The translations under genes were made by a program, and so were the position numbers. Below the pieces are notes generated by a model, which made no database searches, was not told the origin of the DNA, and was given only the letters and a program-made list of their open reading frames with translations. Of a DNA stretch of 64,000 nucleotides, positions 7,783 through 38,448 are shown piece by piece. Within the stretch, counting starts at the first letter, position 1. Each line of letters starts with the position of its first letter. This stretch comes from Schmidtea nova (Eukaryota), in contig CM097883.1 of the NCBI GenBank assembly GCA_044892505.1, forward strand, positions 284,890,001 to 284,954,000, written 5' to 3'.

Positions 7783-7788
7783 TGTTTA

Positions 7789-11480: not shown

Positions 11481-11540
11481 TTCTATCGTATATATATATA
11501 CAATTAACATTTTGCTATCATTTATATTCACAATCACAAA

Positions 11541-17359: not shown

Positions 17360-17441
17360 ACTGTTTTCTTTACAGATAGATCAATACAATTTGACACTAC
17401 ATTTCATACAATTATTTACAAAAATATATTTTCCGCTTTAT

Positions 17442-18503
17442 TTACACAATCGTCTCGTTTGGTTCGTAGAAACCTTCGTCCTGAGGTTCTACCTGGTTCG
17501 TGGGGAGTGGTATCCAAACAACCCTGCTCCTCCACATTTCGACTTCATCTCGATACATGTGAGATATCTGGATCTCCTCGTCCAGCAAATATTCTAGGTA
17601 ATTTGCTTGTTCTGTTAATGTTTCTATTTGCTTCTCTAATTCGATTACTTTTGTCTTTTGTTCGTCTTCCTTCATCATTTTTGTTACGGCTGCCGTTATA
17701 CTTGCTTCTTTGGGTATTACTGATACTGTTACTCGTTTCTGTTTCAATTCTTCGTTTTCTTTCATCAAATTCGTTAAATTTTCCTCATAACTTTGTTTCT
17801 CTTCCTTTAACCTTTCTCTGGTTCTTTTTAGCTCTATTTTCTTCTGGGTAATCACTCCTTGGTAACCATTTATATCTCTCTTCATCTCTTCTTCTTTCTG
17901 ATTCCATATTCCGGTGAGCATAGTTTTCAGTTGTTCTTGATTAGCTAGTTCTTCTCCCATTCTTTGAACTTGATAGGTTAGTCCTTTAATTTTCTTTGCT
18001 TGTTCCCGGATAAATTGCTGTCTTTTTGTATTCCATCTTTTATTTAACACTTCCTGGTTGATTTTCTGCTCTAATTCGTCTTTTAGTTCATCGATCTCTT
18101 TATATAATTTCCAGTCATCACTATAAGCTGTCCTTTCTATTATTTCTCTAGCTTTTTCGTAAGATTCTTTCGCTTCTTTCTTCCAGTATCTTGCTTGTTC
18201 TGTAATCGAATACATCTTGTGTTCGGCTTCCATCTGCTGTCTGTCTCTTTCCTCTCGTCGCTCTTTCATCATTCTCTGATAATATTCCTTTTGTTGTTGT
18301 AGCATTTTGTATACTTCTTCTATTTTTTCTCGATTTCTTTGACTTGATCTTTCCGCTTCTTTTAATAATTCGGCTTGTCTCTCTATCTCCTCTTGCTTTC
18401 CATAATATGCATTGACCCATATTTCAATCTGTTCTAGATGATCGCTAATCGCTTCTGCTTGATGCATCGTAATTTCCTGTAAGCATACTTCGATATTTCC
18501 CAT
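17442..18503 (-). CDS. Coiled-coil protein (353 aa), unknown function
   Basis: Long E/K/Q/R-rich heptad ORF on the element's coding strand, with a possible N-myristoylation start (MG). Confidence 0.65.
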   Translation of the reverse strand: MGNIEVCLQEITMHQAEAISDHLEQIEIWVNAYYGKQEEIERQAELLKEAERSSQRNREKIEEVYKMLQQQKEYYQRMMKERREERDRQQMEAEHKMYSITEQARYWKKEAKESYEKAREIIERTAYSDDWKLYKEIDELKDELEQKINQEVLNKRWNTKRQQFIREQAKKIKGLTYQVQRMGEELANQEQLKTMLTGIWNQKEEEMKRDINGYQGVITQKKIELKRTRERLKEEKQSYEENLTNLMKENEELKQKRVTVSVIPKEASITAAVTKMMKEDEQKTKVIELEKQIETLTEQANYLEYLLDEEIQISHMYRDEVEMWRSRVVWIPLPTNQVEPQDEGFYEPNETIV

Positions 18504-18616
18504 TGCTATAATTTCAGAAAAAAAATTTTAATCGGTTTATATATCAGTTATTTTTGTTTATATAATAATTTTTGGGTATTTAACTGTACATATTATTTAC
18601 ATGATCACTTTTCTTG

Positions 18617-19999
18617 TTACGTCAACCATCCTTTTCTATCCGCTTTCTCATTCCTTTCCATTTCTATGTATAGGGTGTCTGCATATAATCGTTCCCATAG
18701 GCTTTCTTTTGTTATAAACATCGGTTCTCCCGCTGCTAATCCACATTCTGTGGTTGGTTTCTCGCTCGTACTCGCATGTTTCTCTGTCTCAAAGAATTTT
18801 TCCACTGGTTTTGCTACACTTCTGATTCTTATAATGACTCCTACTTTCAAGGGCCATTCTACTAGGTCGTCGTATTCTCCTTTAGATAGCGAGAAAAATA
18901 TTGACACATGTGTTCCTCGTCCTCTTCCGTCTCCATTTGGGTATAGCTTCAATCTCACTTTAGCTCCGTTTCTCCATAAATAAAATGGTGGGCTTATTAC
19001 TGCTGTTTTCGTCATATTTCTGGCCTCTGTTAATTTGTCTCTAAAATCTGTCACTTTCCACACATATGGTGCGATTGGTAACTTTTCCTCGGTATCCTGG
19101 GTGAGTTTGTTGTACTGGATTTTCATTCCTTTAGCCAATTCTTCGATAGCTTTTATCTTTTCCTCCATCTTTTCTCGTGTTAGTTCGAATTGCTCTCTGG
19201 TTTCCAACAGTAGGTTTACCATTATCTTGTGTGACTCTATTTCTCTTTCTAATTTTGTGATTGTTTGTTCGGTTTCTTTTGTTGTTTCGTTTGTCATTTC
19301 CGCATGCTTTAGCAATGCTTCCTCCAGATGTTGTTTCATGGTTTGTTGCGTTCTTTTCTCCATACATCCCTGTTTGTTATAAGGACATTCCCTTGGTTTC
19401 TCCGTGCACACTTTCCAATGTTCTTGTAATTTTACTTCTACCGTTATCTCGCATTCGTTTGAACATATTCCTACATATTGTCTACATACTTTCTCCTCTT
19501 TTACGTTCAGGTGTTCTTCTTCGATCTTTCTCCTCGTTTCTCGAGTTCCACAATATTCGCATAGACTTTCCTCTTCTTTACATTCATCTTTGTGCTGCTC
19601 TTTATTCTTTATAGTTATTTTTTGTTGGCATTTGTTACATTCGGTTCTCTTCTCCTCGCAGTTCTCCAGATGGTTCTCGAGATCGCGTATTTGTCCTTGC
19701 CATATACATGGTTGATTTATACATTCGGTTTTCGTGTTCATGATTTCTCTCTGAGTTGCTCTATCTGGTCCGGTTTCTTCGAATTTTATTTGTCCTTCTT
19801 TGCATTCTGGACATTCTGGTGGTCTTTTCATACTTAACTCGTGTATGCATTTGGTACATACTCTGCATCCGCATAGGGTTTGTCTTGGTTTCAATATTAT
19901 GTTTTTACAATTTACACAAGTGAGTCTCTGACTCCATTTCCTGTTCTCGGCTCTCAAAATTTCGATTATCCGCTCTTCGGCTTTTCCTTCTGTATTCAT
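18617..19999 (-). CDS. TRAF: Full-length intronless TRAF-family protein (RING, TRAF zinc fingers, coiled coil, MATH)
   Basis: RING CVNC...CGCRVCTKC...CPEC; zinc fingers CINQPC...HLENC and CPYNKQGC; MATH YVWKVTDF...SPPFY...LKLYPNGDGRGRGTHVSIFF...GEYDDLVEWP. Confidence 0.92.
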   Translation of the reverse strand: MNTEGKAEERIIEILRAENRKWSQRLTCVNCKNIILKPRQTLCGCRVCTKCIHELSMKRPPECPECKEGQIKFEETGPDRATQREIMNTKTECINQPCIWQGQIRDLENHLENCEEKRTECNKCQQKITIKNKEQHKDECKEEESLCEYCGTRETRRKIEEEHLNVKEEKVCRQYVGICSNECEITVEVKLQEHWKVCTEKPRECPYNKQGCMEKRTQQTMKQHLEEALLKHAEMTNETTKETEQTITKLEREIESHKIMVNLLLETREQFELTREKMEEKIKAIEELAKGMKIQYNKLTQDTEEKLPIAPYVWKVTDFRDKLTEARNMTKTAVISPPFYLWRNGAKVRLKLYPNGDGRGRGTHVSIFFSLSKGEYDDLVEWPLKVGVIIRIRSVAKPVEKFFETEKHASTSEKPTTECGLAAGEPMFITKESLWERLYADTLYIEMERNEKADRKGWLT

Positions 20000-20089
20000 T
20001 CTACAATGATATATACACTTGATTTGTTATCTATTTTTTGATTTTTCTTGTTTTTGTTTTACATATTTACAATTTTTCGCTTTATTTAT

Positions 20090-20571: not shown

Positions 20572-22491
20572 CTATATCACCATCACTGTCTTTCCTTCGT
20601 ACCGCTCTTCATCTTCTATTTGTCTCCAAAATTCTTTACCTTTCGTCCTCCTTTGGAATTCTTTCTGTACTTCTTCCGGTAATTCTATACTGTAGTTCAT
20701 AATCTTTATATCTGGCCAATGTGTTATTGGTTTCTTGTTGAATACATCATATATCCATATTATTAATAATACTGTTATTACTGGAATAGTTGCTGCTAGT
20801 ATTCCTAGACCAATTAGTTCTCTAACTTGTTTGTTTACGTCCATCTTCGTAATTTCACTCTGGTTAATCATTGGTCCGTATTGTCCCTTTAGTTTATTTA
20901 GTAGTTGTTCTCGTTCTTGTTGTTTTCTTTTAACTTCTTTAATTACTTCTTCCGGCGTCCATCTTGCGTAAGGGTCTATTACTACTTGTTCCGCGTCCAT
21001 TTGTTTCGTTGTCTGACTTAATTCTTTAAATTCGAGTTTTCTCACTTTCCCTTTGGACGTTGAGTTTACCGGTGTGTAGTATGTTTCGCATCTTTCCTGC
21101 TGATTTCCCAATATGTCCGTCTTTTCTACCGCACATATCTCGTATTCTCTATTAAATTTCAGATTTTTGATACTCATTTCTTCTTTTCCTTTTACGTTTT
21201 CGCAGTATCGTGGCTGTCTTTCTTTTTGTTCCTGAACTACTGCCCAACATATTTCTAACGTTTTATTGTCTATTCTCCATAGTATAAGAGTTGCTGTAGT
21301 ATTCTTTTCGGTTTTTATTTGTATTTCTTGGTTTTTCTGTTGTCCATTAGGTTTAAAAGTAGTGGTATACCTCGTTTTTCCTTTGTTCCGTTGTCTTCTG
21401 CTTTTTCGCGTTGTCTTTCCAATTCTTGTTCTGGTGGGTGTTTTATATATTTTGCATTCCAGTTCATTTACTGTTATTTTGTCGCTTTTCCTAATCAGGC
21501 ATATTTCGTACGTTTGATTGCTTTCTAATCCTTCTATCTGTATTGTGGTTGTTCCTCTGTTTGTTCGACATTGCGGCGGTGTATTCTGGTTTGTTTTCCT
21601 TTCCTGCTTCTTCCAGCATACGCCTTTGACGTCCGGTTCTATTCCGGTTAACTCCAACATTATTGTTGTTCTCCGTTTGGTGCGTATATTTCTTCTTCTT
21701 CTTCTTATGAACTTTATTGCCTCCCCAGGTTGAAATGTTTTACAAATTGTCGTTCCTTTCTTGTGTCTTTCTTTTTCTAGTAAACATAGTTCATACGTCC
21801 TGTCTGCTTTTACTTCTGATATCTTGGTTACTTTATTTGTTTTCCTTTTCCGACTCGTCTTTATTTCGCTTACGCCAATTTCTTCGTTGCTTTTGGCCCA
21901 ACACTTTGGGTTGGTGTTTTGGGTGTCGTTCATCTCTGTTACTGCCATTGTGTCAATGTCTATCCCTTCTTCTAACCGTTTTAACATTGTTAATATGAGT
22001 GCTAAACATAGTAATTCTGTTTGGTAGGTCACTCTTTCAGTTTCATTTGTGGTTACTCTTACTTCGGGCCTGTCTATGGTAATTTGTATAGTTGGCGTTG
22101 TTCGTCTGTCTATTGTCTGAGGTTTCTTGTTTTTTGTTCCTTGTGTCTCTGTTCCTCTACACTTTCCTACGACATAGTCTCCTTTGGATGGCTGCTGTAT
22201 TGTTATGGTTACTTTGGGTGTTAGGTAACTTGCACATGCAATTGTCTTATGTGATCTCGGATCCTTTGGTTTCCGAACGGTGCACATTCTGTACCAAGTA
22301 TCTAGCTCTAGGTCATCGATCTCTATGATTTCTTGTTCGTATTCTGAGATCCTGCAATCCATTGGACTATTTTGTCCCGATATTTTGTCCTTTTTTGACC
22401 AACATACTCGTTCGATTCCTTTTGCGTTTCCAATTTGTATTGTCGCTCTTTCTTCACATATTATTCCTTGAGTGGGACTAATTAAGGTCAT
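20572..22491 (-). CDS. Fibronectin type III-like repeat type I membrane protein (639 aa; frame open upstream to the TAA at 22666-22668)
   Basis: About four repeats ending in IxxLxxxxxYExC; TM segment LIGLGILAATIPVITVLLIIWIY; signal-like PELLLLTVIMTLISPTQG spans the annotated ATG. Confidence 0.65.
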   Translation of the reverse strand: MTLISPTQGIICEERATIQIGNAKGIERVCWSKKDKISGQNSPMDCRISEYEQEIIEIDDLELDTWYRMCTVRKPKDPRSHKTIACASYLTPKVTITIQQPSKGDYVVGKCRGTETQGTKNKKPQTIDRRTTPTIQITIDRPEVRVTTNETERVTYQTELLCLALILTMLKRLEEGIDIDTMAVTEMNDTQNTNPKCWAKSNEEIGVSEIKTSRKRKTNKVTKISEVKADRTYELCLLEKERHKKGTTICKTFQPGEAIKFIRRRRRNIRTKRRTTIMLELTGIEPDVKGVCWKKQERKTNQNTPPQCRTNRGTTTIQIEGLESNQTYEICLIRKSDKITVNELECKIYKTPTRTRIGKTTRKSRRQRNKGKTRYTTTFKPNGQQKNQEIQIKTEKNTTATLILWRIDNKTLEICWAVVQEQKERQPRYCENVKGKEEMSIKNLKFNREYEICAVEKTDILGNQQERCETYYTPVNSTSKGKVRKLEFKELSQTTKQMDAEQVVIDPYARWTPEEVIKEVKRKQQEREQLLNKLKGQYGPMINQSEITKMDVNKQVRELIGLGILAATIPVITVLLIIWIYDVFNKKPITHWPDIKIMNYSIELPEEVQKEFQRRTKGKEFWRQIEDEERYEGKTVMVI

Positions 22492-22665
22492 GATTACCGT
22501 TAGTAATAATAGTTCTGGTTTAAGGAATGGGTTTATTGTTTGTTTGTAGCCTGTTCTTTTTACTTCGTTTTTATTTTTATAGTTGTTGTTTCTTTGTTTC
22601 CCAAATTCATTTTTCTTATCATTTTTCTCTGTGTCCCTTCCTTTCTCTTCACTGTCCTCTTTATC

Positions 22666-25600
22666 TTATAACTCATGATCCTCTGGATTTTCTCGAGTAC
22701 TATCGTCGTCGTTTCCTGTATTGTCGCCTCCCCTTTGGTCGTTGAAAATGTCGTCCTCGACATTAATTGCTTCTATCATTTTTTCATACGTTATGGTTGT
22801 GAGTATACTTGCTTCATATTCTTGTGTTACTGCCTGCTTAGGTATTTCCTTATCGGTTAATTTACAATCTAGAATCTCTTTCTTGGCTTTTATCCAATTA
22901 TTAAGGTACGTTTTCATTAGTTCTTTCCATTTGTCCGTACGTTCTGTTTCCTTTGGGTTGTTTGTGAATCGCAAATCTTTTCTTCTCATGAAGATGTCTA
23001 TTATCTTTGGCCATTTGTTTATTATTAATGCACACTTTATATACAAATTTTGGCCTTGTTCCATGAACTCGTTGATCCTGAATGCTGGTTCATTGGTGTT
23101 TGGGTTCATCCAATTGAGTATTGTTTCGGTTAGTTCAGCGTTATGCATCATGGAATGTACGCTAGCTTTTTTAACTGTCCTTGTAAGGTATTCTATTTCC
23201 TCCTGATTTGTGATTGTTTTTATAAAGTTTATCACCTCCCAATTGTGCGCTAACAACGCTACGTCTAGTATTGAGCTGTCTTTGTTAGTTCTTCCCATGA
23301 GTCCTGCACCTGCTTCGTACAGTTCCTGTAACACTCGGGTTTTTGTGTTCGCTCTTGCTGCGAATATCATGAGAGTATCTCCCTTTTTATCTTTCATGTT
23401 CATGTCACTTCCGCACTCTTGCATCAACCGTGCAATTTCGACTATCCTCCTCTCTTTTCTTGCTCGTAAGGCTCTATGTATTGGCAATACTCCATTCTTT
23501 GTTAATAAGAAAGTCACTGGCATTTCTCTTTTTATGATCATCATATCGTTTTCATTGTAAGTTCCTTCCGCGTATGCGTGTATCTTTTCCACAATTGCTC
23601 CGAGTATCTCCAGTGTATGTTTAGAATTTTCGAATTCTGGTAATAGTTCTTTTGCTTTGTCCTGTATCGCATCTAACCTTTCTTGATAGGGTACCTCTGC
23701 GCTGAAAAGTGGTGTAAATTTCCTTTTGCTTTCTCTTTCCTTTCGACCTAGGAATTGTTTGCATTTTTCGGGGTGGTTTAATATGTCTACTAGTTTGTCA
23801 TACTCTTCCTCCACCGTTTTGTACTTATCTTGAAAATTGGATATATCTTTGTAAGTTATCGACTTGGTTAGCGATTTAGCACACCATTCCCTAATATTCC
23901 TGAATAATGCTTCTTTTTCACTTTCGAATTTCCACTCCTCTTTGTTTTTGGACATTATGATATTTCCTCTATCTAATAACGTTAACAGTGTTTTCTGATC
24001 ACAAACGAATTTTAATAGAAATCGTAATAACGCGTTTTGTCCTTCACTGTATACCTCGTTTATATTTAACACCCATGTATCATTTTCAGATCTTTTCCAT
24101 TTTATTAGCTTGCGTATTGTTTTGCAGTTACCGATTTTTATTGCCTCCTTGATTATATCACCTTTGATCAGTTCGTCTATTTCCCAAGTGGCCTTCTCGA
24201 TTATTTGTTTGAGCATTATCTGATTTGAGCTCCATATTGCGTGATTCAAGACCGTTTTGTTTTCTCTATCGCGTTCCGTCCAGTTGAAATTGGCATTTAT
24301 CAAAAGGTCTATTATTGCTTTATCCGATTTGTAGATGGCTGCTACCATTAATGGTATTTCTTGTTCGCTATTCCCAAAACCAAGGTATTGGTTTGTTTCC
24401 TTTGCGATTTTTAGAAATTCTTTTACTCTCTCTACTTCTCCCCATTTTATGGCGTTATGTAATGCTGGTTGTCCTCCTATGTCTTCTAGTGAAAGTATTT
24501 CTGGAATTTTTTCCAGTAGTTCTGAAATGACTGGTTTTGTTGGTAGTCCCCTTGCGTAATCACTAATTATCGACTGAATATCTCTTAATATATCGTCTCT
24601 GACATGCCATTTTCCCATTATTTCTCTGGCTTTTAGTACAATTTCCTTGTTTCTTTTTTCTTGTTGATTGTTTTCTGCTTCGGTACTTTCATTGGTTGCT
24701 CTGAGCATATTCATTCTGGCTGTCTGGGATCTGGTTATTATTCGTTCTTCTGGCGCTGTGGTTATTGTCTTTGGTACTTTTTTACATCTGCATGTATTAA
24801 CGTATATTGGTCGTATCAATGGTCGATTAACAAGTTTTACCTTCACATTGTTTTCCTTTTTGTATATAACTTCGTAAGGGCCTTTTCCTGGTCTTTGTAG
24901 TTTTTTAACGGTTCCTGGTATTATTTCTGGGGTTTCTATCATTACCCAATCTCCGGGTTTAAGATCATTTGTTTTAACATTTTTCTTTTGATCGTGTAGG
25001 TCCTTGTAACTTTCTTGATAAAACTTTATGTTCAGTTCTGCTGTCTTCCATATCTCTTGCATTCGTTCTTTGAATTTGGTGACGTAATCATCTTCCTCCA
25101 TATATTGAGACAAAGGTGGTTGATATTCAAGATCTATTGGCATATTGCATTCCCTTCCATACATTAATTGAAATGGACTCAATTTTGTTGCTGCGTGTAT
25201 CGACATTCGGTATGCCATTAGACATAGCTTTATGTACTCATCCCAATCTGTTTGGTGTTTGCTTACATAATTGGATAACATTCGAATCAATGTGCCGTTA
25301 AATCTTTCCGTTTGTCCATTGGTTTGCGGATGATATGGTGACGTTCGTAATTTGGCTATTCTGAAGTAATTTGTTACTTCATCTAGTATTTCGCTCATAA
25401 AATTTGTTCCTTGATCTGTTAGTATTTGTTTCGGGGTTCCGTATCGACAACATATTTCCTCTACTAAAATTCTTGCTACGGTCTTTGCTTTTTGATCCGG
25501 CATCGCAAATGCTTCAGGGAATTTAGTCAAATAATCCGTTATTACCAATATATATTGATTCCCGTTTAAACTTTCTGGCAATGGTCCTATTACATCCATT

Positions 25601-25962
25601 GCAATGGTAGTCATTGGTTCTGCTGGTATCGGCATGGGTTTTAAGGGATTTTTCCATTTCTTCCCACTATCCTTTCTTGTGGCACAAGTTAAACAGTTCT
25701 TTATCCATTCCTTTACGTCCTCGTCCATTGTTGGCCAATAATATTTTTGTCTCATGCGATCTAATGTTTTCTTGTCTGACATATGTCCTCCCAATTTTCC
25801 GTCGTGGTATTGAGTTATTATCTCTTTTCGTCTATTACCTGGCAAACACATTAACCGTTTCTCTCCATCTTGTATTAACAACCATCCTTTTTCTATTGTG
25901 TATCGATGTTGGTATTTCCTCATGTGTTCTTTTAACTCCGCATTGTCTTTGAATACATCCAT
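22666..25962 (-). CDS. pol: Integrase (HHCC, DDE, GPY/F) fused to a ~600-aa ankyrin-repeat extension
   Basis: H...GH...C..C zinc finger; MDVIGP, LTDQGTNF, NGQTERFN; GKGPYEV; ankyrin motifs GQPALHNAIKWG, IPLMVAA, GVLPIHRAL, GDTLMIFAAR. Confidence 0.9.
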   Translation of the reverse strand: MDVFKDNAELKEHMRKYQHRYTIEKGWLLIQDGEKRLMCLPGNRRKEIITQYHDGKLGGHMSDKKTLDRMRQKYYWPTMDEDVKEWIKNCLTCATRKDSGKKWKNPLKPMPIPAEPMTTIAMDVIGPLPESLNGNQYILVITDYLTKFPEAFAMPDQKAKTVARILVEEICCRYGTPKQILTDQGTNFMSEILDEVTNYFRIAKLRTSPYHPQTNGQTERFNGTLIRMLSNYVSKHQTDWDEYIKLCLMAYRMSIHAATKLSPFQLMYGRECNMPIDLEYQPPLSQYMEEDDYVTKFKERMQEIWKTAELNIKFYQESYKDLHDQKKNVKTNDLKPGDWVMIETPEIIPGTVKKLQRPGKGPYEVIYKKENNVKVKLVNRPLIRPIYVNTCRCKKVPKTITTAPEERIITRSQTARMNMLRATNESTEAENNQQEKRNKEIVLKAREIMGKWHVRDDILRDIQSIISDYARGLPTKPVISELLEKIPEILSLEDIGGQPALHNAIKWGEVERVKEFLKIAKETNQYLGFGNSEQEIPLMVAAIYKSDKAIIDLLINANFNWTERDRENKTVLNHAIWSSNQIMLKQIIEKATWEIDELIKGDIIKEAIKIGNCKTIRKLIKWKRSENDTWVLNINEVYSEGQNALLRFLLKFVCDQKTLLTLLDRGNIIMSKNKEEWKFESEKEALFRNIREWCAKSLTKSITYKDISNFQDKYKTVEEEYDKLVDILNHPEKCKQFLGRKERESKRKFTPLFSAEVPYQERLDAIQDKAKELLPEFENSKHTLEILGAIVEKIHAYAEGTYNENDMMIIKREMPVTFLLTKNGVLPIHRALRARKERRIVEIARLMQECGSDMNMKDKKGDTLMIFAARANTKTRVLQELYEAGAGLMGRTNKDSSILDVALLAHNWEVINFIKTITNQEEIEYLTRTVKKASVHSMMHNAELTETILNWMNPNTNEPAFRINEFMEQGQNLYIKCALIINKWPKIIDIFMRRKDLRFTNNPKETERTDKWKELMKTYLNNWIKAKKEILDCKLTDKEIPKQAVTQEYEASILTTITYEKMIEAINVEDDIFNDQRGGDNTGNDDDSTRENPEDHEL

Positions 25963-25994
25963 ATTTCGTGAGCTTAGGAATTCTATGATGGGTT

Positions 25995-27122
25995 TTAGTT
26001 CTTTTTATCCTCTTGCTGATCTTTCTTTAACTCACTGAAATCCAAATCCTCTGCTATCACTATGCATATTCTTTGCACTTCTGGATCTGTTAGTTCTGGA
26101 AACGTCAATCTTGACATACAATCCGCGTTGGCATTCGCTTTCTCTGATTTGAATTTTATATCTGGTGAATATTCTTGTAATTGCATCGCCCATCTCCTTA
26201 ATCTGCTGGATGTTTCCTTGTGTTGTCCTAGCCATACAAGTGGTTGATGATCCGTGGTTATGCATATAACGTGTCCCCATAATAGATATTTAAAGTGTTT
26301 TATTGCTAATATTATTGCCAATGCTTCTCTTTCCGTTACTGAATAATTCTTCTCGTGTTTCTTGAATGTTCTGCTATAATATCCGATTACTCGTTCTTTA
26401 CCTTCGTCATCATATTGTCCTAACACTGCTCCTGCTGCATATCCACTTGCGTCAGTCGCGAGTAAAAATGGCTTCTTGAAATCCGGGTGAACCAATATTG
26501 GTGCAGTTATTAGCTTATCTCTCAATGTTTCAAAGGCGGTTTGTTGTTCGCTTCCCCATATGAATGATACGTCTTTCTTTACTAGCTCTTGGATTGGTTT
26601 TGCAATTCCTGCGTAATCCTTTATGAATTTCCTATAATAACCGCATAATCCGAGAAATTCTTGGATCTGCGTTATCGTCTTTGGTACTGGACATTCTTTT
26701 ACTTTATCAATGTTTCTGGGATCTGGTTCCTTTCCTTTTGCGGACACAATATGTCCTAAGAATGTCACTTTCTCCTTTGCCCAATCGCATTTCGATGGTT
26801 TGAGTTTGAGTTTCCATTGTCTCAATCTAACAAATACATCTCTGATATCTTGGATGTGTTGTTCAAATGTGCTTGAGTAGATCAGTAGGTCGTCAATGTA
26901 AACCATGCATTGTTTTATGCCGTGGGTAACGAAATTCATACATCTTTGAAATGATGCTGGCGCATTGGTTAGTCCGAATGGCATTTTCCTAAATTGGTAC
27001 AAGTCTCTTCCAATGGTGAAAGCAGTTTTCTCTTTGTCTTCCTCCTTCATTTTAATTTGCCAGTATCCGCTTTTCAAATCCAATGATGTAAAATATGCCG
27101 CTCCTTGTAATGTCAATAACAT
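25995..27122 (-). pseudogene. pol: Reverse transcriptase (C-terminal part) and RNase H
   Basis: LDLKSGYWQ, MPFGLTNAPASFQR, YIDD, ATDASG, REALAI. Separated from the RT N-terminus by an in-frame TAG (27123-27125) and from integrase by a 1-nt deletion at ~26000. Confidence 0.92.
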
Positions 27123-28180
27123 CTAGTTGATGTCTGGTAATGGGTATGTATCCCGTTTTGTTACCGCATTTAATCTCCGATAATCAATACAAAATCGTTG
27201 TGTTCCGTCTTTCTTTTTCACCATTACAACTGGGAATTGCCACGGTGAGCAGCTTGGTTCAATTACTTCTGCGTCTAGCATTTTCTGTACTTCTGCTTCT
27301 GCTACTGATTTCTGCGCTTCAGCTAACTTGTATGGTCTTAACGCAATAGGCGTTTCGTCTGTTAGTGGAATCGTATGTAGTGTGACGTCGCATGTCCCTA
27401 GATCTAAATCGGATGCTGCGAATATGTCTTTATATTCTATCAGTAATCTTTCTAGCTGCTTCTTTTGATCCTCATTTAATAGTTGGCTATCAATGTTCCA
27501 AGTGGGTTCCTCCTCTTTTACTCCTTCTTTTATTGGTATTTCGATATCTATCATTGGAGTTAGTTTACCCAATCTTTCGTTTTCATAAATTATTTTATCC
27601 TCTTCATCGAAATTTACTACATTTATTGGGATTTCTCCGTTGTCATTCGCACTCACTAATCCCCTTGCCATTGGCAACGACTTTCTCTTTTCAAATCTTT
27701 TACTGGGTTCAAAGATCATGTCACCTTCTATTGTAGGGTCTATTTTTACGAAACATATTTTCTCTCTCCGTGCTGGTACGATTATTTGTTTCGAACTTGT
27801 TACTTTTGCTTCTATTGCGCATATCTGTCCTGTCCTGTCCTTTAGTCTCATTGTTCCGAGATCAATAACTATTTCTTTAAATAATGCTGGCATTAAATCT
27901 GTGCCTATAATGCATGGTACGCTCAGTGCTGGTATTACTGCTACGTACGTTTCGATTTCTGTGTTTTGATGTTTTATCTTCACCCACCATCTTCCGGCAA
28001 CTTCTACTACTTCTTTACTGCATGCTATTACGTGAACGTTGGTTCTCTCGATATCCCGTCTTTGTTCTTGTGGTATCCATTTTATATCTATTGCTGAGAT
28101 ATTTGCTCCTGTATCAATCATCGCTTCTATTTCCCTTCCGTTAATTTCGATTGTTGTAGTTAATACTGGACCGGTGTTTG
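27123..28180 (-). CDS. pol: Aspartic protease, post-protease beta domain and RT N-terminus (C-terminal part of the 1114-aa ORF)
   Basis: [47 protein letters not shown]. Confidence 0.9.
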
Positions 28181-28639
28181 ATGACATTACTGCAATTGTA
28201 TGTGAGTCTCCTTGCGGATCTACGCTTCTGCACCGTCTCGTTCTATAGTCTTCTGGTATCATAGGATATATGTTTGTCATCGGCATCATTTGCATTGTAT
28301 TTTGTCTCATCCCTGGTGTTGGTTCTTGGTACATGGTTGGTGGGGGTGCGTAACACTTCCACATTTCCGCTGGATTCTTTTCGACGTACTGTGGTACTTG
28401 ATTTTTAAATACTTGACCTCCTTCGTTATCATCATCATCGTCGTCACTGGAATCGTCTTGGGTTCTGTACCCTTTCATTCTTTCCCATAGTCCTTTTCTC
28501 TCTTTCTTTAGTTGTTGTCTTGCTTGCTCGTTATTCATTATCTTTTTAAATTTTCGTCCCACCTCTTCATCGGTTCCTTTCATTTTTGCCAGTATTTTTA
28601 GGAGTCTCTTTATTCGGTGAATATCTTTTGAATGACCGT

Positions 28640-30473
28640 GTAATACCATTGTTTTAGCCAAAAATGGTAAGAATCCTACCACCAATTTCCAATTTACTTT
28701 CTTTTCTCGTTTATAGATGTCAAAACAGGCTAACATTTGCGTTATTATTACTCGTATTATTTGTATAATTAGTATAACACCAAGTATTCCTGCCATCATT
28801 TGTCCAAATATTAAAAATCTTCCCCACATCGCTTTCATCATGTTCTCCGTTGCCTTCTTAAAGTGGGCTGGTGACAATAATAATTCGTAATTTGGTCCAC
28901 CTTGGTAATTTGTTCCTCCTGTTATTGTTACAATACTGGATAGCACCGCTTCCCTTCTTGCTGGAAATAGTATGTTTTGCCTCGCTGCCTCTAAGTCTTT
29001 TGCGCTATAGAATCCCATATTACTTACATCTACGTCTTTAAATTTTCGTCCTTTTGATAGTTGCATCAATTCAAATTCCCTTGGTGCTGGTACCTCTGTT
29101 CTTGATGGAAACATAACCCAATTTCCGTCTGGTTTTTGGTATAGTGGTCCATATGCGTTGCTGCAATTGAAAGGGTTTGGTTCGAAGCTTATTGGATTTA
29201 TGATTCTTGTCACTGGTTGCACATATCTTACTTTCCCTTTATATTCGATTTCTAGTTCGTTAGTACACTGACCTGGTTGTAGTTTTGTCATTGTTGCCAC
29301 CTTTGCGTTCGTCTTTTTACATATGTATACGTACATGACCTCTCCGACTACCCTTCCAAAATGACCTTCTCTTAATGGTAATAATGGCATTGCACTATCC
29401 GGGTTTGTGATTGCAACTGCTAATTTTGTCTTTAATATTTCCCTATTTAATATGCAATCGTTGTTAATTAAATCGTAATACACTTTTTGTAGTGACGCTT
29501 GTCCTCTATGGAATAGAAAATCCATTTTATTGTTCATGTACAGGTGTAATTTAACATCGTTCGTGTGTACTTTGCGTTTCGCACTAGGTACTTCTTGTTT
29601 TGATACAAAAATGCCGGGGTAGTTGGTTTCCAACATAGCTACTCCGCATTTCAAGGCTGTTTTTCCTTTTACAAACCTCATTCCGATATCTGCATCTGAG
29701 GTAATTAGTACCGTTGGTGTATTTCTCATTTTAATTTGTTTTTCTTGTGTTCGGGTTTCAATCTTTTTCTCTCCTCGTACTGTGTCTTGAAGTATTTTTC
29801 CTCTTGCTGCCTCGTCTTCTTCTTCCTCTTGGAAGGTTTTCCCTTGTATCTCATCGAATTCTGCTTCCTTTAACAGTTGTAGTTGACATTCCTTTCCTCG
29901 TATCTGGTAGGTTAGGGTTGACATACCAGTCTGACAAGTGTTTGACTCGATTTTGCACATAGGTAGAGTTTTCATTTCTCCCGTCGTTGGATCGAAGAAT
30001 GCCTCGTACGTTTTTAGTTCCACTGTATACGTATCTATTACCACTAGGTTTGTTGCTGCTACTTCGAATATTGGATATGTTGCTCCTTGGCAGTACCCTT
30101 CTCCTCCCGTAATAGCTCCTGCTACATAATATGTTTGTTGTAATATCACTCCCGTTTTTCCTCTTATCTTTACTCTATCTCTAGTCTCTACTTCTCCATG
30201 TTTGAATAATTTTTCACAGTCTTCTCCTTGCAGCATTACCGATTCTCTTTCCGTTCCTGGCATCACGATTGCTGAATAATGGCGGTGCCCACAATAAAAA
30301 GCAAATCTGGTTTTATAAACTTTGCATTCTCTGACAATTGTTCTTATCAGTTCAGCTTCCTGATATACGTGGTATAATTGTCTCTTTTTTAATGTTTTTA
30401 GCTCCGTTGGGGTTGCGTCCTTACATTGTTCTGTCCCTCGTAGTGAATATTTCTCACCTAATGCCATTTGATC
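28640..30473 (-). CDS. env: Envelope glycoprotein, class III fusion type (chuvirus G / retroelement gB-like)
   Basis: Cys-spaced ectodomain beginning FEVFD(*)DQ, with [13 protein letters not shown], [33 protein letters not shown] and GFYS, then TM segment [21 protein letters not shown]. Family assignment is from recalled motif patterns. Confidence 0.75.
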
Positions 30474-33400
30474 TCAATCGAATACTTCAAATGCTGTTGC
30501 TCCGTCAGTACTAATCATCCATATTAACATCATCATAATGATAGAACTCAAGTTTAGTGATGATTTCCCGTTTCCTGTTCCCGACTTTTCCTTTTCCAAT
30601 TCTCCCAATATCTCTTCGAATTTCCTTTTCATATTTTTGGCTTGGTTTTTCTTTTGGTTCGTTTTTGTGAATGTTTCCCATCCTCCTTTACTGATGATGT
30701 ACGGTTCTATTTCCTTCTCTATAATTTTGGCTGTATTCTTTATATGTCTTTCAAGTGCTGTGGGTTTCAGTCGACCTCTACTCAGTGTCAGCAGATTGTA
30801 AATGGTGTATGCCATAGCTATTAAATATTTGTTATCCGTCTCTGCTCCTTCCGTTAACTTCTTTATCAACATCGTGGTTCCTTGCCAATCTAGGTGGTTT
30901 GACCTTGTCTTCTCTTTTATTAATTCTGGTAGGATTGGTGCGATGGCGCTATGCAGTGATTTCGCCCTTTCGCCTATTTCGTTTATTCTCCACCATTTCT
31001 TTAATTCCGGATCGATTATTGCCAGTATTTCCATTAACATCTTTGATATCCATTCCTCGCCTTGGTATGTTTGTGTTGTTTCTTTTTCTTTCGTTTCGGC
31101 TATTTTATTTAGTTTCTTTAGACACAAATCCCATTGATCCCGTCTTTTTTCCTCTCTTGATTTTATAACTACATTTGCTGGATCCATCTTGGGTCTACCT
31201 CTAGGTCGTTTATCCATTGTCGTGCCCGTTTCTACTAATCTTGTTTCTCGTCCAGTTTCTTCTGTGACGTCTCTTGGTTCATTGGCTCTTTCTTCTAACC
31301 ATCTTTCCATTTCTTGTGTGAATTGTACATTTTCTACATTTGCCCTCCTTGCTTCCTCTTCTGCTATTTCATTTACTTCCTCTATGATTATTTCTTGTTC
31401 GACTTCATCTTCGGTGTTGGTTACCGGTATTGCTGTTGGTAATTCTTGGATTCTTTCGAAAATGTTATCATCTTTCTCTTTTGTTAGCTCTATTAACTCC
31501 TCTAACATATCATCGCTATCTGTAAAAATTTCGTCTACATCGTATGGTTCTGGTGGTGTTCTTTCTCTTGTCTCTCTTGGTGTTGTTCTAGCTTGTTCTG
31601 AGCTTGTTCCTGGAGTCATTACCGATTTCATTGGGCTCGGCGTACTCATACTTCCTTTTGGTTTCTTTTCCTCTTTCAATTTCAATGGTTGACCTGCTAT
31701 TGCTGCTACTGTCAATGTATTTGCGATATCTAATTGCGCTGGCGTTATTCCAATTTCTAAGCTGTTATCTAATGATCGTCCTTGGTGTTGTAAATGGAAT
31801 GGTGGTTCATATCTCAATTTCTTTTTAATGTCTCGGACTTTCTCCACTATTCCTACCCAAAACTCTTCCTTTTCTTGGTTCGGATATACTATTCTTAGGT
31901 GTACTTTCTGTGGCGATTCCTGCGAGAATTCTTGGTTTCTCCATTTTTTAATTACGTGATCCAATTGTTCTGGACACCACTCGTTAACTCTTTTGTATTC
32001 GGCGATTGCTTTTGCTACTTTACGCAGGCAGGTTATGTCTTCTCCATTAACTACGAAAAAATCTGCGAGACCTTTTACTAATTTTCTCTTGCCATGAGCA
32101 TTGGTTTTTAATATTTCGACAAATTCTTCCGTTTTTTGTTTTTCTCTTTCCAACCACATGGTTGCCGTTTCTGGTCCGTCTAAATCCGCTGGCATGGCTT
32201 TTCTTGTTACCATACAGACTCTTCCGGTTTCCGGTTTGTGATCGTCTTCTATGCTTATTTCATATTCCTCTTCGTATTCGCCTGCTTTTGGTTCCCAACA
32301 TTTTCCTCGTTCGTTCCATTGTTTTTCTACAGGTGTTCGTAATCGTCTGTTGAGATTGAGTTCTTCTAATACGTCTTCCCATTCTGGCCAAATCCGCCAA
32401 TTTCGATAAATGTCTACTATTTGTTGTAATTTATGCACAACTTCTTTTTGTCGTTCCCGTTCTCTTTTCTCATCTTTAGCAGTTTCTCTTGGTGTATCGT
32501 CCATTCTGATAACGTGGATGGTTTGGTGATTATCCCATATACCAATTTTATATAGCCGTCTTTCGTCGTGATCCCACAATACATGTTCGTTGTATTTCAT
32601 GATTATGTCATCTTCCCATTCTTCTTCTGGTTCTCTTTGTAATAGGGTCTCGTTGATGACATTTACTAATTCTTTTATGGTACAATCTGCTACCACTTCA
32701 ATTTCTTTGGTATCCTCATTAGGCAATTCCACTGAAATTTTTAGATCTGTTATTTTCCCTTGTCTGAACATTGCTTTTCCCATTTTGGCAACTACTTTTC
32801 CGTATGAGATCTGTGACCATCTCGTGTGACTTGTGTCACGTATGCATTCGATACATCGTTTCAGCTTTTCGTATTCGCTTCTCATTAACTCCTTTCTATG
32901 TTTTTTGATTTGTGGGATGATTTGTTCTATCATGGAGTTTAGATTTCCTCGTAAGATTCGACCTTTCTCATATTCTAACCGTGGTTTTATCTTCTTCTCG
33001 AAACACGTATTCGCTTCCTTTGCTACTTCTTGTAGGTTCTCTTCTCTCTTATCATCGCATATCGATAATGTTGTCACCTCTCCTGGCCATATGCCTGTTT
33101 CTATCAAATGCGTCCTTTTCTTCACTAGTCCATTCTGTGAATAGAGGAATTTGTTTTTATATGAACTCCCTAATCTGTCTTCCACCCATTGATAAATATC
33201 TTCCGTGAGTGGAGCTTTGATCCAAATCCTTGGCAAACATGTTTTTATCTCTATTAGTATTATATATTCATGGAGTGGTTCTTTTAATAATTTTCCTACG
33301 TACTGGCTTAGTGTTTCTACTTCTCGGCCTGGTAACCACTCTTTATAGTTCATTTGTAATATCGCTCTCATGAATTTCCGATAGTGTTTCTTGTCGATGA

Positions 33401-35963
33401 ATTCCTCATTATATATTACTTCTAGCGCATTATCTAGTAATTTCTGGATCTCGTCCTCTTTTACTTGAATAGTTTCTGGTGTCTTTACTACTTCTATCTT
33501 TTTGTCTTCGATTTCCGGTTCGTTTAGCATGTCCCCTGCTAGACTACTGACGTCACTATCCTCTTCGTCATCTGAAAAATTCTTTGCCTGGCCTCTCAAC
33601 ATGTTAATGTGTTTTATTTGGTTGATTTCACTTGGTGTATTTTCCGTTGGTCTTGTTTCACTTTTAATAGCTTTTTGTGTTGATTCACTCTTGTCGTCTA
33701 CTACTTCGACCTTTCTCATTTTTCGTTCTAACTCGTCTATTTCTCCCAACCGTCTTCGTATCATTTTCCCTTTAAATATTCGACTGATTCGTGTTTCGTG
33801 ACGCACTGGCGATGGAATTCCTTCTGGTTCTATTTCCTTGATTACCATCACATTTCTTTTTGTCTCTACTACTCCCATGTTTTCCCATGTATCCGTTAGT
33901 TTCAATTTTACTTCTGGTGCACCTTCTATTTTTAGGAATGCTTCTCTGGGCAGTTTCGTTACTCCTGGAGCCATTTCATTCACTTTATTGAACAATATTT
34001 CTACTTCTTCCTTTATGTTATATTGGAATCGAAACACGTGCTTGTTTGGCAAAATTACCATCATTCCTCTTTTCCCGAGTTTCCTTTTCTCTTCTTGGTT
34101 CCCTTCTTTTTCTACTTCCTTTTCTGTTTCTTTTTCTGCTTCTTCATCTTCTTGTATTATCTCTTTTCGGCCTTCGTTGTTGGTTGGATTCGGGTTTGTT
34201 GGATTTATTTCTGGCACAGTCTCTTTCTCGTGGGTATTTGTTTGATTGGTTGCTCTCATCATATTAATTCTTAGAGGTTGTCGTTCTCTTTCTTGCTGTT
34301 TTTGTTCCTCTTCTCTTTGTATTCTTGCCCATTCCTGAGCATGTCGTGCTTGACTTTCCCGATTCAATCGTTCGTTTTCGCTTTCTATTTTTCTCATCAT
34401 ATTGATTTGTTGTTGACCTGTTTGCGGATTTCCTCTGGTTGTATTGTTTATCAGCTCCGTCAATCTTTGGACCTCTTGCATTAAATGTATCTCTTTAGTG
34501 GTATTTTTATTTTGGTTGTTATTATTACTATTTGGTTGGTTTCCGTATTCCGGTTGGTTTCCATTATTTGGCTGATTTCCATAATTCTGTCGGTTTCCAC
34601 CAGTTGGTTGGTTTCCATAGTTTTGTCGGTTTCCGGTATTCTGCCAGTTTCCTCGTTGATTGCTTCTTTGTCCGCAATTTCTTGATAGGTGTCCAGGTCG
34701 TCCACAATTAAAACAGGTTATTGTGTAACATCTGCTCTCTGAATGCCCTTTTACTCCACATTTTCCACAATTCAAGTTCTGATAACATTCTTGTTGCCAA
34801 TGTCCCAATTTCCCACATGTTTTGCATTGTTTCGTTGGTCCTTGGGGGTTGTAATTGTTTTGATTTCCGTAATTTGATACTTTATTCCCTTCATTCCTTC
34901 GTTGCGGTGGTGGTAGGTTTAATTGTTGTGAATTTGGAATGTGGTTATTCAGGTTCACTTCTTGTTCGTTTTGTGCTGTATCCATAGCTAAATAGATTCT
35001 ACCATCATTTCCTATCATGTGTAGTTCAAATCTATTAGCTGTTTCTAGTGCTTGGTCGATGGTTTTACAACCTTGACATCCAACTTGCGCTCTTATGTCG
35101 GGTCTTCTTAATCCTCCCACAAAGATAGCTGCCATTAACTCCTCATTTATTGGACTGTCTTGATTGAAAATCAACTTTGCTAACTTTTTCAATTCGCTTG
35201 CATATACCGCATTCGATTCATTTATCTTTTGTTTCCTCATTGAGAATTCCGTAAATGCCTCATTCAATACTTTATTTATTCCGAAGGTTTGTTGGAAAAA
35301 GTCCTTTATCGCTGACCAACTTGTAGGTGGATTAATTCCATTTTTTGCTTCCAAATATAGATCTAATGCGCTATCTTTTAAATATAGCTGAATTCTGCTT
35401 ACAGTTGTTTCTGGTTTCCACTTGCATACTTCCACGAATATGCCAAATTCCTTTAAGAAAGTTTCTAATTTACTCGCATCTCCATTAAACGGTTCTCCGG
35501 AAAATTTGTCTTTTATCTCTTCTCTTGGTTCGCTCATTTCAATTCCGCTGTCTGTAGTTATTTTACTTTCGTTTCCTCTTGTTTCTAGTTCACTGTTAGG
35601 TTCGTCACTCGAATTTCGGTCGATCTCAGTTTCTTTTGCTGATTCGTTATCTGATGCTTTACTATCGTTATCGGTATCGTCACTTTCTGTTTCTTGTTCT
35701 ACTTCGTCTTCTATTTCTTCTATATAATCGTTGTTGGTTTTGTCGACTTCTATTTCACTTATTGGGTTTCTCTCGGGTTCTGCTTGATTTTCTTTGTTGC
35801 TTGGACTGTTGCTTGTTACTGATAATTTATCGTTTTCGATAATCGATTTGTGTATTATTATCTTCCTCGCTTTACTTCCTTTTAGGCCTTTCTGCTTATT
35901 ATTCTTGGTAGCTTTATTCTTTTCTGCTGGTTTTATTATGACACTCTTTTCTCCTTTTCTCAA
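30474..35963 (-). CDS. gag: Extended Gag polyprotein: capsid, three CCHC zinc knuckles, N/Q/G repeats, ubiquitin-like domains, AT-hook, Bcl-2-like domain, C-terminal hydrophobic segment
   Basis: Knuckles CKTCGKLGHWQQEC, CGKCGVKGHSESRC and CFNCGRPGHLSRNC (34674-34826); BH2-like EPYIISKGGWETF. The track start is TTG; the first ATG is near codon 143, so the true start is unresolved. Confidence 0.88.
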   Translation of the reverse strand: MRKGEKSVIIKPAEKNKATKNNKQKGLKGSKARKIIIHKSIIENDKLSVTSNSPSNKENQAEPERNPISEIEVDKTNNDYIEEIEDEVEQETESDDTDNDSKASDNESAKETEIDRNSSDEPNSELETRGNESKITTDSGIEMSEPREEIKDKFSGEPFNGDASKLETFLKEFGIFVEVCKWKPETTVSRIQLYLKDSALDLYLEAKNGINPPTSWSAIKDFFQQTFGINKVLNEAFTEFSMRKQKINESNAVYASELKKLAKLIFNQDSPINEELMAAIFVGGLRRPDIRAQVGCQGCKTIDQALETANRFELHMIGNDGRIYLAMDTAQNEQEVNLNNHIPNSQQLNLPPPQRRNEGNKVSNYGNQNNYNPQGPTKQCKTCGKLGHWQQECYQNLNCGKCGVKGHSESRCYTITCFNCGRPGHLSRNCGQRSNQRGNWQNTGNRQNYGNQPTGGNRQNYGNQPNNGNQPEYGNQPNSNNNNQNKNTTKEIHLMQEVQRLTELINNTTRGNPQTGQQQINMMRKIESENERLNRESQARHAQEWARIQREEEQKQQERERQPLRINMMRATNQTNTHEKETVPEINPTNPNPTNNEGRKEIIQEDEEAEKETEKEVEKEGNQEEKRKLGKRGMMVILPNKHVFRFQYNIKEEVEILFNKVNEMAPGVTKLPREAFLKIEGAPEVKLKLTDTWENMGVVETKRNVMVIKEIEPEGIPSPVRHETRISRIFKGKMIRRRLGEIDELERKMRKVEVVDDKSESTQKAIKSETRPTENTPSEINQIKHINMLRGQAKNFSDDEEDSDVSSLAGDMLNEPEIEDKKIEVVKTPETIQVKEDEIQKLLDNALEVIYNEEFIDKKHYRKFMRAILQMNYKEWLPGREVETLSQYVGKLLKEPLHEYIILIEIKTCLPRIWIKAPLTEDIYQWVEDRLGSSYKNKFLYSQNGLVKKRTHLIETGIWPGEVTTLSICDDKREENLQEVAKEANTCFEKKIKPRLEYEKGRILRGNLNSMIEQIIPQIKKHRKELMRSEYEKLKRCIECIRDTSHTRWSQISYGKVVAKMGKAMFRQGKITDLKISVELPNEDTKEIEVVADCTIKELVNVINETLLQREPEEEWEDDIIMKYNEHVLWDHDERRLYKIGIWDNHQTIHVIRMDDTPRETAKDEKRERERQKEVVHKLQQIVDIYRNWRIWPEWEDVLEELNLNRRLRTPVEKQWNERGKCWEPKAGEYEEEYEISIEDDHKPETGRVCMVTRKAMPADLDGPETATMWLEREKQKTEEFVEILKTNAHGKRKLVKGLADFFVVNGEDITCLRKVAKAIAEYKRVNEWCPEQLDHVIKKWRNQEFSQESPQKVHLRIVYPNQEKEEFWVGIVEKVRDIKKKLRYEPPFHLQHQGRSLDNSLEIGITPAQLDIANTLTVAAIAGQPLKLKEEKKPKGSMSTPSPMKSVMTPGTSSEQARTTPRETRERTPPEPYDVDEIFTDSDDMLEELIELTKEKDDNIFERIQELPTAIPVTNTEDEVEQEIIIEEVNEIAEEEARRANVENVQFTQEMERWLEERANEPRDVTEETGRETRLVETGTTMDKRPRGRPKMDPANVVIKSREEKRRDQWDLCLKKLNKIAETKEKETTQTYQGEEWISKMLMEILAIIDPELKKWWRINEIGERAKSLHSAIAPILPELIKEKTRSNHLDWQGTTMLIKKLTEGAETDNKYLIAMAYTIYNLLTLSRGRLKPTALERHIKNTAKIIEKEIEPYIISKGGWETFTKTNQKKNQAKNMKRKFEEILGELEKEKSGTGNGKSSLNLSSIIMMMLIWMISTDGATAFEVFD

Positions 35964-36513
35964 CGGGATTACTTTTGTATACTCAATTTTCCTGTCTTAT
36001 CGTGTTCCGATTCTTTTCTTCCTTGGTTGCTTGGTTTGGTTTGATTGATTTATCTAAAATACAAATGTCACTTCAACGATACTCTATTGTTATCGTTGCG
36101 CTTTTATTCCCTTTTTACGGGACTTCTCATTACTGGGTTTCTATTATTTTTCCCCATTCCCAGATTCCCCTTTATTTAAGTCTATTTAAATTATCTATAT
36201 ACTAGTCACAATTATCCATTTAGTCATAACAATTATCTATCGGTTATTCAAATACATCAATTATTTTTCCCGCGGTCTCCCAATTTATTTGTCGTTCGAA
36301 CGCTCTAATTCCCTGAGTCATTTGACTCGATTATTATTTTATCATCTCTTTATCTTTCTCTCTGCTAGCCTCTAATTATTAATTCTGCCGGTCTTTCCGG
36401 TCAGCTCCTATTTCTCAATTCTACTTGCATGCATTATTTTAGGTCGCATAATCAGCTTTACTCGCATTTCTCAATTCCTGGTGCGCACTATTCTCATTAT
36501 CGTCGACGATCAC

Positions 36514-36725: not shown

Positions 36726-36749
36726 CTATATATCCGGATATCCCTATTG

Positions 36750-36935: not shown

Positions 36936-36937
36936 TC

Positions 36938-37628: not shown

Positions 37629-38090
37629 TTATAAATAAACTACAATTCTATCAGCTACAGAGAAATTGCACATGGGGCACTCATCACACTTATTCGCACA
37701 GTTTTTACAAAATCGAAAATGTCCGCATGGTAGAAACATTATTTGGATTTCACTGTCTTCGCATATGTAACATTGTTTATATTGTTTTGCTGCCTCGACC
37801 CCTTGCGACATCCATCGGTTATATGTTAGGTTTAACTGCTGTTCTATATGTCGGCATCTAATATTCAACTCGGCATCCTCTAATCGTGCTTTGTACCATT
37901 TATATCGCGTATTTATATCGAGTTTATTCACTTTCTCTATGATTTTTATTAACTCAGTTGTTTCCTCCGTTTGTGTCGTAGGTTCCTCATATTCGGATGC
38001 TCTTATTCGGGTTATTTTTTCGCAGACTGTCTCAAATGTATCGTTCTCGGTGTTGAAAAATTCCTCGATTTCTTTCAGTTTTTCCTCCAT
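37629..38090 (-). CDS. C-terminal RING finger protein of IAP/MDM2 type, no BIR visible (153 aa)
   Basis: CYIC...FLPCGH...CKNCA...CPMC...IVVYL at the extreme C-terminus. Lies between the PBS and gag. Confidence 0.8.
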   Translation of the reverse strand: MEEKLKEIEEFFNTENDTFETVCEKITRIRASEYEEPTTQTEETTELIKIIEKVNKLDINTRYKWYKARLEDAELNIRCRHIEQQLNLTYNRWMSQGVEAAKQYKQCYICEDSEIQIMFLPCGHFRFCKNCANKCDECPMCNFSVADRIVVYL

Positions 38091-38430
38091 TTCCTAGATA
38101 ATTTATTTAATTACTGTGTTAATATTATTCGAAAAGTAGTACTGTGTTTCGTTTCTGACAGTTTTATAGCCTAGTACTGTGTTTCGTTTCTGACAGTTTT
38201 ATAGCCTCCCCCCGTGTTTCGGTAAATTGTCGTCCCGACCTGTTATTTATGAATGCATTTGTTCAATTTATCTACTAATTTGTTTTAATTCTCTGTTTGT
38301 AATTATCTATTTCCACGCAACTCACTTTTATCTCGTTTACTCTTTCGGTTACTATTTCTACTCACAAAATTCTGATTTTAAGTTTCTCTGTTGTCATTGG
38401 GTTCACCTTTTCCGCATAAAACAAAGTTGA

Positions 38431-38448
38431 ATCCCGGCTGAGCCCCCA
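38431..38448 (-). promoter_or_regulatory. Primer-binding site complementary to the 3' end of tRNA-Pro
   Basis: TGGGGGCTCAGCCGGGAT, 16/18 identical to the MLV tRNA-Pro PBS TGGGGGCTCGTCCGGGAT, 6 nt inside the 5' LTR. Confidence 0.8.

Follow-up and report, generated by a model that had tools for sequence, protein, structure and literature searches.

A Burro-type giant retroelement of Schmidtea nova with a predicted class III fusogen between Gag and Pol in one reading frame, and a related lineage that lacks Pol

The env genes of retroviruses and errantiviruses lie 3′ of pol in a separate ORF, and non-autonomous derivatives of LTR elements are common in general. The polyproteins of flaviviruses and alphaviruses are threaded through membranes and cut by host signal peptidase and by a protease of their own, the capsid being anchored by the signal of the next protein; these viruses carry class II fusogens and do not use reverse transcription. 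Giant gypsy-like LTR elements, known as Burro or GYPSM1, have been described from planarians (PMC6431247, citing Grohme 2018 and Jurka 2007). These are ~28-30 kb long with long LTRs, and carry env in frame with gag on one side and pol on the other, in a single ORF that measures 5,140 aa in D. tigrina and 4,873 aa in S. mediterranea (Arkhipova and Yushenova 2019, PMC6431247). GAG-ENV-POL elements with a gB-type ENV have also been reported from Nematoda, Bryozoa and Platyhelminthes (Chary and Hayashi 2026, PMC13524379). They include Smed_errantivirus_1-6 of S. mediterranea, with coding spans of 14.5-18 kb and up to 215 copies; the ectodomain of these HSV/gB-type errantiviruses is flanked by a signal peptide and a TM or by two TMs, and infectious enveloped particles are not shown for most of them (PMC13524379). 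The layout with env between gag and pol is therefore already published and is not new, and the caution in an earlier note on this DNA, that a relationship to Burro be checked before novelty was claimed, was well placed.

The window analysed here is a stretch of 64,000 nt from Schmidtea nova. It holds an LTR element of 28,553 bp on the minus strand, flanked by a 4-bp target-site duplication and enclosing five large collinear frames on the same strand (30474-35996, 27123-30473, 25995-27122, 22666-26004 and 20572-22665). The boundaries between them are a TGA, a TAG, a frame change at 25995-26004 and a TAA, in agreement with the five ORFs, three stops and one frame change read earlier from the letters. 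The parts of the element are given below in the order of transcription; subfamily 2 is a related subfamily, 80% identical, to which we return.

38455..41794, minus strand: 5′ LTR, 3,340 bp, TG...CA, with 3 mismatches in 3,340 bp against the 3′ LTR
38430..38454, minus strand: primer-binding-site-like sequence, the same motif being present in subfamily 2 copies
37629..38093, minus strand: upstream accessory ORF of 154 aa, C3HC4 RING finger like that of IAP proteins (PF13920, E 6.8e-12)
35540..36060, minus strand: acceptor-like TTTAG at 36054, then 515 ATG-free nt, with 153 open codons before the first ATG
34662..35537, minus strand: Gag, a capsid-like region and three CCHC knuckles (two by Pfam, the third by eye)
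31689..34079, minus strand: up to four weak candidate ubiquitin-like units with helical inserts (best Pfam E 0.005-0.03, below cut-offs; dN/dS 0.13-0.26)
30627..31154, minus strand: weak Bcl-2-like domain, BH2-like stretch only (Bcl-xL E 0.35; dN/dS 0.05)
30492..30563, minus strand: internal signal-peptide-like stretch 1, with a 13-residue hydrophobic core at 30513-30551
28854..30473, minus strand: Env ectodomain of Monjiviricetes/chuvirus type, predicted class III (gB-like) fusogen (PF24664, E 1.3e-66)
28743..28799, minus strand: Env transmembrane helix by hydropathy, then a 170-residue tail; identical in subfamily 2
27819..28178, minus strand: aspartic protease (PR; PF00077, E 1.1e-8)
27519..27818, minus strand: conserved 100-residue insert between PR and RT, at the place of a published dUTPase-like domain (dN/dS 0.05; no family match by Pfam)
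26073..27506, minus strand: reverse transcriptase (RT) and RNase H (RH) by Pfam, broken in the window copy by the stop at 27123
24715..25887, minus strand: integrase (IN; PF17921, PF00665)
22855..24597, minus strand: two ankyrin-repeat blocks (PF12796, E 2.6e-13, two stretches)
22465..22536, minus strand: internal signal-peptide-like stretch 2 by hydropathy, after the ankyrins
21055..22467, minus strand: four related Cys-bearing repeats of ~85 aa each, with invariant W, C and C; FN3-like as a lead only
20572..20814, minus strand: second transmembrane helix by hydropathy and a 60-residue tail, at the end of the polyprotein
18617..20026, minus strand: downstream accessory ORF, TRAF-like (RING by eye, TRAF zinc fingers, MATH; PF22486, E 7e-21; dN/dS 0.14-0.26)
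16787..18527, minus strand: two further accessory ORFs, both retained in subfamily 2, one coiled-coil-like (361 aa) and one for a membrane protein (197 aa)
13242..16581, minus strand: 3′ LTR, TG...CA

The element has the TG...CA LTRs, the short target-site duplication and the PR-RT-RH-IN order (Pfam) of Ty3/gypsy (Metaviridae). The nearest solved structure to its RT is Ty3 RT (E 7.5e-67), with retroviral RTs at ~1e-24. We take the primer-binding-site-like sequence to resemble that for tRNA-Pro; no tRNA genes were found in the 64-kb window. Its size and multi-kb LTRs, a single ORF1 of ~4,900-5,140 aa in sister copies, an env in frame between a BCL2-like region and PR, ankyrin repeats and MATH/TRAF in an accessory ORF (downstream in this element) are all as in Burro. 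In the Burro account these traits go together with a CCHC Gag, Ubl, a PR-RT insert, and TRAF/MATH in either ORF1 or an accessory ORF (PMC6431247), and here the BCL2-like and Ubi/SUMO-like matches, although sub-threshold only, fall at the places expected for Burro. In contrast to the D. tigrina Burro, where the TRAF ORF is upstream (PMC6431247), that of the window element lies downstream of the polyprotein. Burro1 has a BIR/IAP domain, whereas here there is an upstream RING ORF and no BIR match in any of the ORFs scanned with Pfam, the RING ORF included. As in the HSV/gB-type errantiviruses, a gB-type ENV is placed between gag and pol (PMC13524379), the Env of Smed_1 resembling that of the window by eye; the family also shares with them a predicted gB-like class III ENV and many intact, near-identical copies. 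The element is best filed under the Burro/gB-type errantivirus kind, the named Burro families (Burro1-4/GYPSM1) having been compared by description.

Sister copies were then compared at the breaks. A search of the genome (1.25 Gb) with the first junction gave 395 candidates, and from the best 40, which were scored, the matching 10-kb stretch was taken from 39 other copies. The four break sites were open in 39/39, 39/39, 39/39 and 38/38 of these, one copy ending before the fourth site, and 24/39 were stop-free across the whole 10 kb compared. A second search, with the Env domain, yielded 85 matches of at least 95% identity among the best 117 of 3,134 candidates. A single open frame of 5,134-5,162 codons was present in 30 of the 85 (exactly 5,140 codons in 23); both lists of copies are biased toward the most similar ones. 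The four breaks are thus private to the window copy: the stops are far from being fixed in all copies, and the stop-free ORF that the earlier note expected elsewhere in the genome exists. Its length of ~5,130 codons also holds as a frame length, although that count begins at a TTG, and the first ATG (35537) gives ~4,988 codons.

Mean divergence between copies was 1.7%, and that of the window copy 2.2%. The mutation spectrum was symmetric, also for transitions, which rules out hypermutation of the window copy. Its private substitutions amounted to 16 per 10 kb (3 synonymous, 10 replacement and 3 stops). These 16 changes fit neutral decay after insertion, with three stops in 16 being high, and inheritance of the breaks from a defective parent is not needed to explain them. 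This pattern, with the near-identical LTRs, marks a copy that is young and has been decaying since it inserted. The window element is a young, abundant giant retroelement represented by a slightly damaged copy.

Pfam places the Gag zinc knuckle, fusion glycoprotein, PR, RT, RH, IN and ankyrins in exactly the order claimed from the letters, and this order, together with the open sister copies, backs a single polyprotein with env between gag and protease. The fuller domain string proposed (Gag-Ubl-Bcl2-TM-Env-TM-PR-RT-RH-IN-ankyrin-TM-FN3-TM) stands for the domains scored by Pfam, but its Ubl, Bcl-2 and FN3 members fall below Pfam cut-offs. A fusion domain followed by a protease in one chain was found in 11/20 relatives scanned, with RT also present in 5. 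Six distant relatives appear to bear two or more protease domains 3′ of Env. Against a subfamily-2 copy without the deletion described below, dN/dS was 0.01-0.36 in every segment with unsaturated dS, four segments being saturated. All parts of the polyprotein are therefore under purifying selection wherever dS is unsaturated.

The labels Ubl, Bcl-2 and FN3 are weakly supported by their sequences. A profile of the Ubl region against PDB sequences returned no ubiquitin match, and an Atlas search with the Bcl-2-like region returned no usable match; in one relative, however, Pfam recognises Bcl-2 directly 5′ of Env (E 9.6e-4). For the C-terminal repeats the first Atlas match was fn3 (0.81), which we treat as a lead, and neither Pfam nor a profile against PDB sequences matched FN3. 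A third subfamily (86%) has a second, diverged block of repeat domains behind the first. The three downstream accessory ORFs (16787-20026) are retained in subfamily 2 at 50-67% identity.

The identity of the envelope domain was approached through structure prediction. A model of Env built on an alignment of 118 sequences reached a pLDDT of 88.7, while a fold from the single sequence was unusable (pLDDT 35). All top Foldseek matches of this model in the PDB were herpesvirus gB (E 4e-13, TM ~0.42). By VIA, Env and gB aligned over 382 residues (Z 10.8, rmsd 5.5), and the next matches were the glycoproteins of rabies virus, VSV and thogotovirus (Z ~6.4). Among viral models the top Foldseek matches were chuvirus glycoproteins (E 1e-37). 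A word-index homolog search with Env found none at E<=0.001 among proteins of 325-1,035 residues. Cysteines of the gB-like ectodomain are near-invariant in the alignment of relatives, and Env dN/dS was 0.06-0.08 against the non-deleted subfamily-2 copy. These predictions support a class III fusogen; the earlier suspicion of such a fusogen is borne out by the resemblance of the model to herpesvirus gB, and the Cys-rich domain does not, on this model, lack a fusogen fold. The Burro env had been likened to gypsy Env (PMC6431247), whereas the model of the window Env is class III and gB-like. The same family of fusion proteins, PF24664, is held in common with the chuvirus/Monjiviricetes glycoproteins and with Anakin, but chuviruses are negative-strand RNA viruses and Anakin is a BEL/Pao element with its glycoprotein 3′ of integrase (PMC7642597, PMC12440569). 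The window element adds a young, high-copy family to those described, and gives the Burro envelope a predicted class III fold.

The sequence ahead of the first ATG hints at how translation may begin. The 515 nt after TTTAG contain no ATG in any frame, against 6.7 expected (2/2,000 shuffles), and TTTAG sits 54-61 nt ahead of the frame in all three subfamilies. The 153 codons before the first ATG are also open in the 80%-identical subfamily, with dN/dS of 0.29 and pN/pS of 0.36-0.47. From these signals the mRNA is likely spliced at TTTAG, possibly with a non-ATG start upstream of the first ATG. No joint was found at the acceptor-like site in four contig sets of unknown kind, such contigs being uninformative on splicing. 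A shared AAA-ATT-G context near 35987 could serve as a non-ATG start. The 5′ leader also carries tandem repeats with units of 40/81 bp and 31/61 bp (36748-37154). Within the LTRs there are two ORFs of 198 and 163 aa (39014-39610 and 39928-40419, minus strand), repeated in the 3′ LTR and without a convincing Pfam match.

A closer inspection of hydrophobic segments suggests how such a chain may lie in the membrane. Stretch 1 is missed by a 19-residue hydropathy scan, its 13-residue core being of signal-peptide type. A hydrophobic run ending in small residues directly before Env is nevertheless seen by eye in 14/14 relatives, and in 7/9 by a hydropathy cut-off. After IN, a second signal-like run and a helix occur in three long distant relatives. 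The topology likely runs from cytosol (Gag-Ubl-Bcl-2) to lumen (Env), cytosol (PR-RT-RH-IN-ankyrin), lumen (repeats) and cytosol (tail). Two extra hydrophobic stretches, at 28641-28685 behind the Env helix and at 21982-22020 between repeats 1 and 2, might themselves span the membrane and so change the parity. Sequons were not enriched in the predicted luminal parts (7.3 vs 5.0 per 1,000 residues), nor were they better kept there (4/8 vs 11/20). A motif resembling a protease site recurs at the PR, RH/IN and IN borders, with 11 cytosolic and 2 luminal matches, and was defined post hoc. The membrane-threaded polyprotein of the earlier note therefore agrees with hydropathy and with the relatives, but we still infer it, and the sequons give it no support.

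Taken together, we regard it as probable that the window holds a recent, since-damaged copy of a Burro-type Ty3/gypsy element, in whose intact sisters one frame spans Gag, a fusion protein of predicted class III, Pol and what is likely another membrane protein, the product being likely threaded through the ER during translation. In the mechanism that we propose, a likely spliced mRNA would be scanned to the Gag start. The hydrophobic stretch behind the Bcl-2-like domain would act as an internal signal peptide, signal peptidase freeing Env into the lumen, while Gag-Ubl-Bcl-2 would stay tied to the membrane through stretch 1. The Env helix would bring the chain back to the cytosol, leaving PR-RT-RH-IN-ankyrin suspended there from the Env tail at one end and the second signal at the other. 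That signal would send out the repeat domains as parts of a second surface protein. The cytosolic parts would be cut by the element's own protease at the motif recurring at the PR, RH/IN and IN borders. Enveloped particles could then bud and spread between cells, and the Bcl-2, RING, TRAF and ankyrin cargo would likely tune host death and immune signalling. If signal peptidase cuts after stretch 1, no lasting Gag-Pol fusion would exist; packaging of Pol would then depend on the Env tail, and that of Gag on its C-terminal anchor. One frame also means that Gag, Env and Pol are made 1:1:1, so some other control of their ratio would be needed. If its internal signals are real, the element works like flavivirus and alphavirus polyproteins, without homology to them.

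Subfamily 2 bears on the question of ratios. Frames of 4,108-4,140 codons were found in 12/25 of its matches listed. Six of the nine copies examined have lost 3,021 nt in frame. The gap opens shortly behind PR and closes where IN ends, so that the PR-RT insert, RT, RH and IN are gone; Gag, Env, PR, the ankyrins, the repeat protein and all three ORFs downstream are kept. The junction is common to the deleted copies and has microhomology and no GT-AG ends, which rules out a spliced RNA that was copied back. It was matched over its full length in at least 40 copies (40/40 scored matches), against 26 undeleted, and the Pol-less lineage thus outnumbers its full-length helpers. It is also still inserting: LTR pairs were 99.96-100% identical in 6/6 deleted copies, five of which have a clear and distinct target duplication. 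Among Pol-less copies Env pN/pS was 0.03. However, the 5′ parts do not set deleted copies apart from full ones, being up to 99.6% alike between the two, and recombination with helpers can partly explain this low value.

This lineage allows a broader, tentative picture, which we hold to be possible rather than probable. Burro-type elements may need neither a Gag-Pol fusion nor a matrix anchor at the N terminus for assembly. They would be built from an ER-stitched chain in which one stretch is both the tail anchor of the Bcl-2-like domain and the signal peptide of Env, Pol travels looped onto the tail of Env and a second surface protein comes last. A Pol-less satellite that has lost exactly the RT-RH-IN block in frame, paired with its helper, would supply extra Gag and Env and thereby replace a frameshift. 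If the topology is true, it answers how a retroelement packages Pol with a luminal protein between Gag and Pol. The Pol-less, still-inserting lineage is a natural test of which parts are required in cis, and of protein ratios without a frameshift. The passages on Burro in PMC6431247 are silent on signal peptides, the C-terminal repeat/TM protein and Pol-less copies, and those on HSV/gB-type errantiviruses in PMC13524379 on single-chain topology, Pol packaging, cargo domains and a second membrane protein. Our literature search found no description of internal signal peptides, of Pol-less Burro copies or of an LTR derivative in which Env and protease stay in frame. Topology, FN3 or copies without Pol may already be covered by Lee et al. 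2026 (Dev Cell, Burro1). Potentially novel are the packaging of Pol by a membrane-threaded route, which we infer, and the Pol-less lineage, which is descriptive.

Other explanations lead to different products from the same DNA. The stops and the frame change might be programmed read-through and frameshift signals that set protein ratios, or the borders of separate genes. Gypsy elements often use such signals, but none of the breaks is shared by any other copy (0/39, or 0/38 at the fourth site) and one of them falls inside RT. With all four private to the window copy, programmed read-through is ruled out and we give this explanation practically no weight. A further alternative accepts the continuous DNA frame, but has most Env and Pol translated from spliced subgenomic mRNAs; little of the full polyprotein would then be made, and stretch 1 would be a signal peptide of the usual N-terminal kind. 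The splice acceptor apparently used (the conserved TTTAG ahead of the Gag frame), the Met-rich residues that open stretch 1 and a Gag:Pol ratio that a single frame leaves unexplained would all suit it. However, neither the 39 copies nor subfamily 2 have a fixed stop or frameshift between the parts, the linkers are under purifying selection, and in distant relatives Env is still joined to PR in a single chain, so that we judge such subgenomic expression to be quite improbable.

It is also conceivable, though unlikely, that Env no longer makes infectious particles, and that these elements move only within cells, their membrane proteins serving as an assembly scaffold or in a host-side role (cell fusion or a block to superinfection). 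Particles and their transfer are here predictions from sequence, and the Pol-less lineage retains Env at the low pN/pS given above. Burro1, moreover, has been reported to benefit its host through an anti-apoptotic role (Lee et al. 2026, cited in PMC13465017). Against this, the gB-like ectodomain is complete with near-invariant cysteines, Env is under the kind of selection that an entry protein should show, and recombination between Pol-less and full copies can carry the signal of selection over into the former.

Several other features lie in the window outside the element. A large, near-perfect inverted repeat (1547-13241), with arms of ~5.4 kb and a centre of 800 bp, adjoins the element's 3′ LTR with its own right end. 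On the plus strand there are two ORFs without a family in 43369-46013 and an ORF of 1,334 aa at 48399-52403 with a weak match to endonuclease VII (E 0.002). These are bracketed by copies of a 600-700-bp repeat (42354-43085 and 53509-54100), and the whole is possibly a large DNA element. Finally, a second, broken gypsy-type pol (RT, RH and IN) is found on the minus strand at 60571-63887, where it is partial and continues past the edge of the window.
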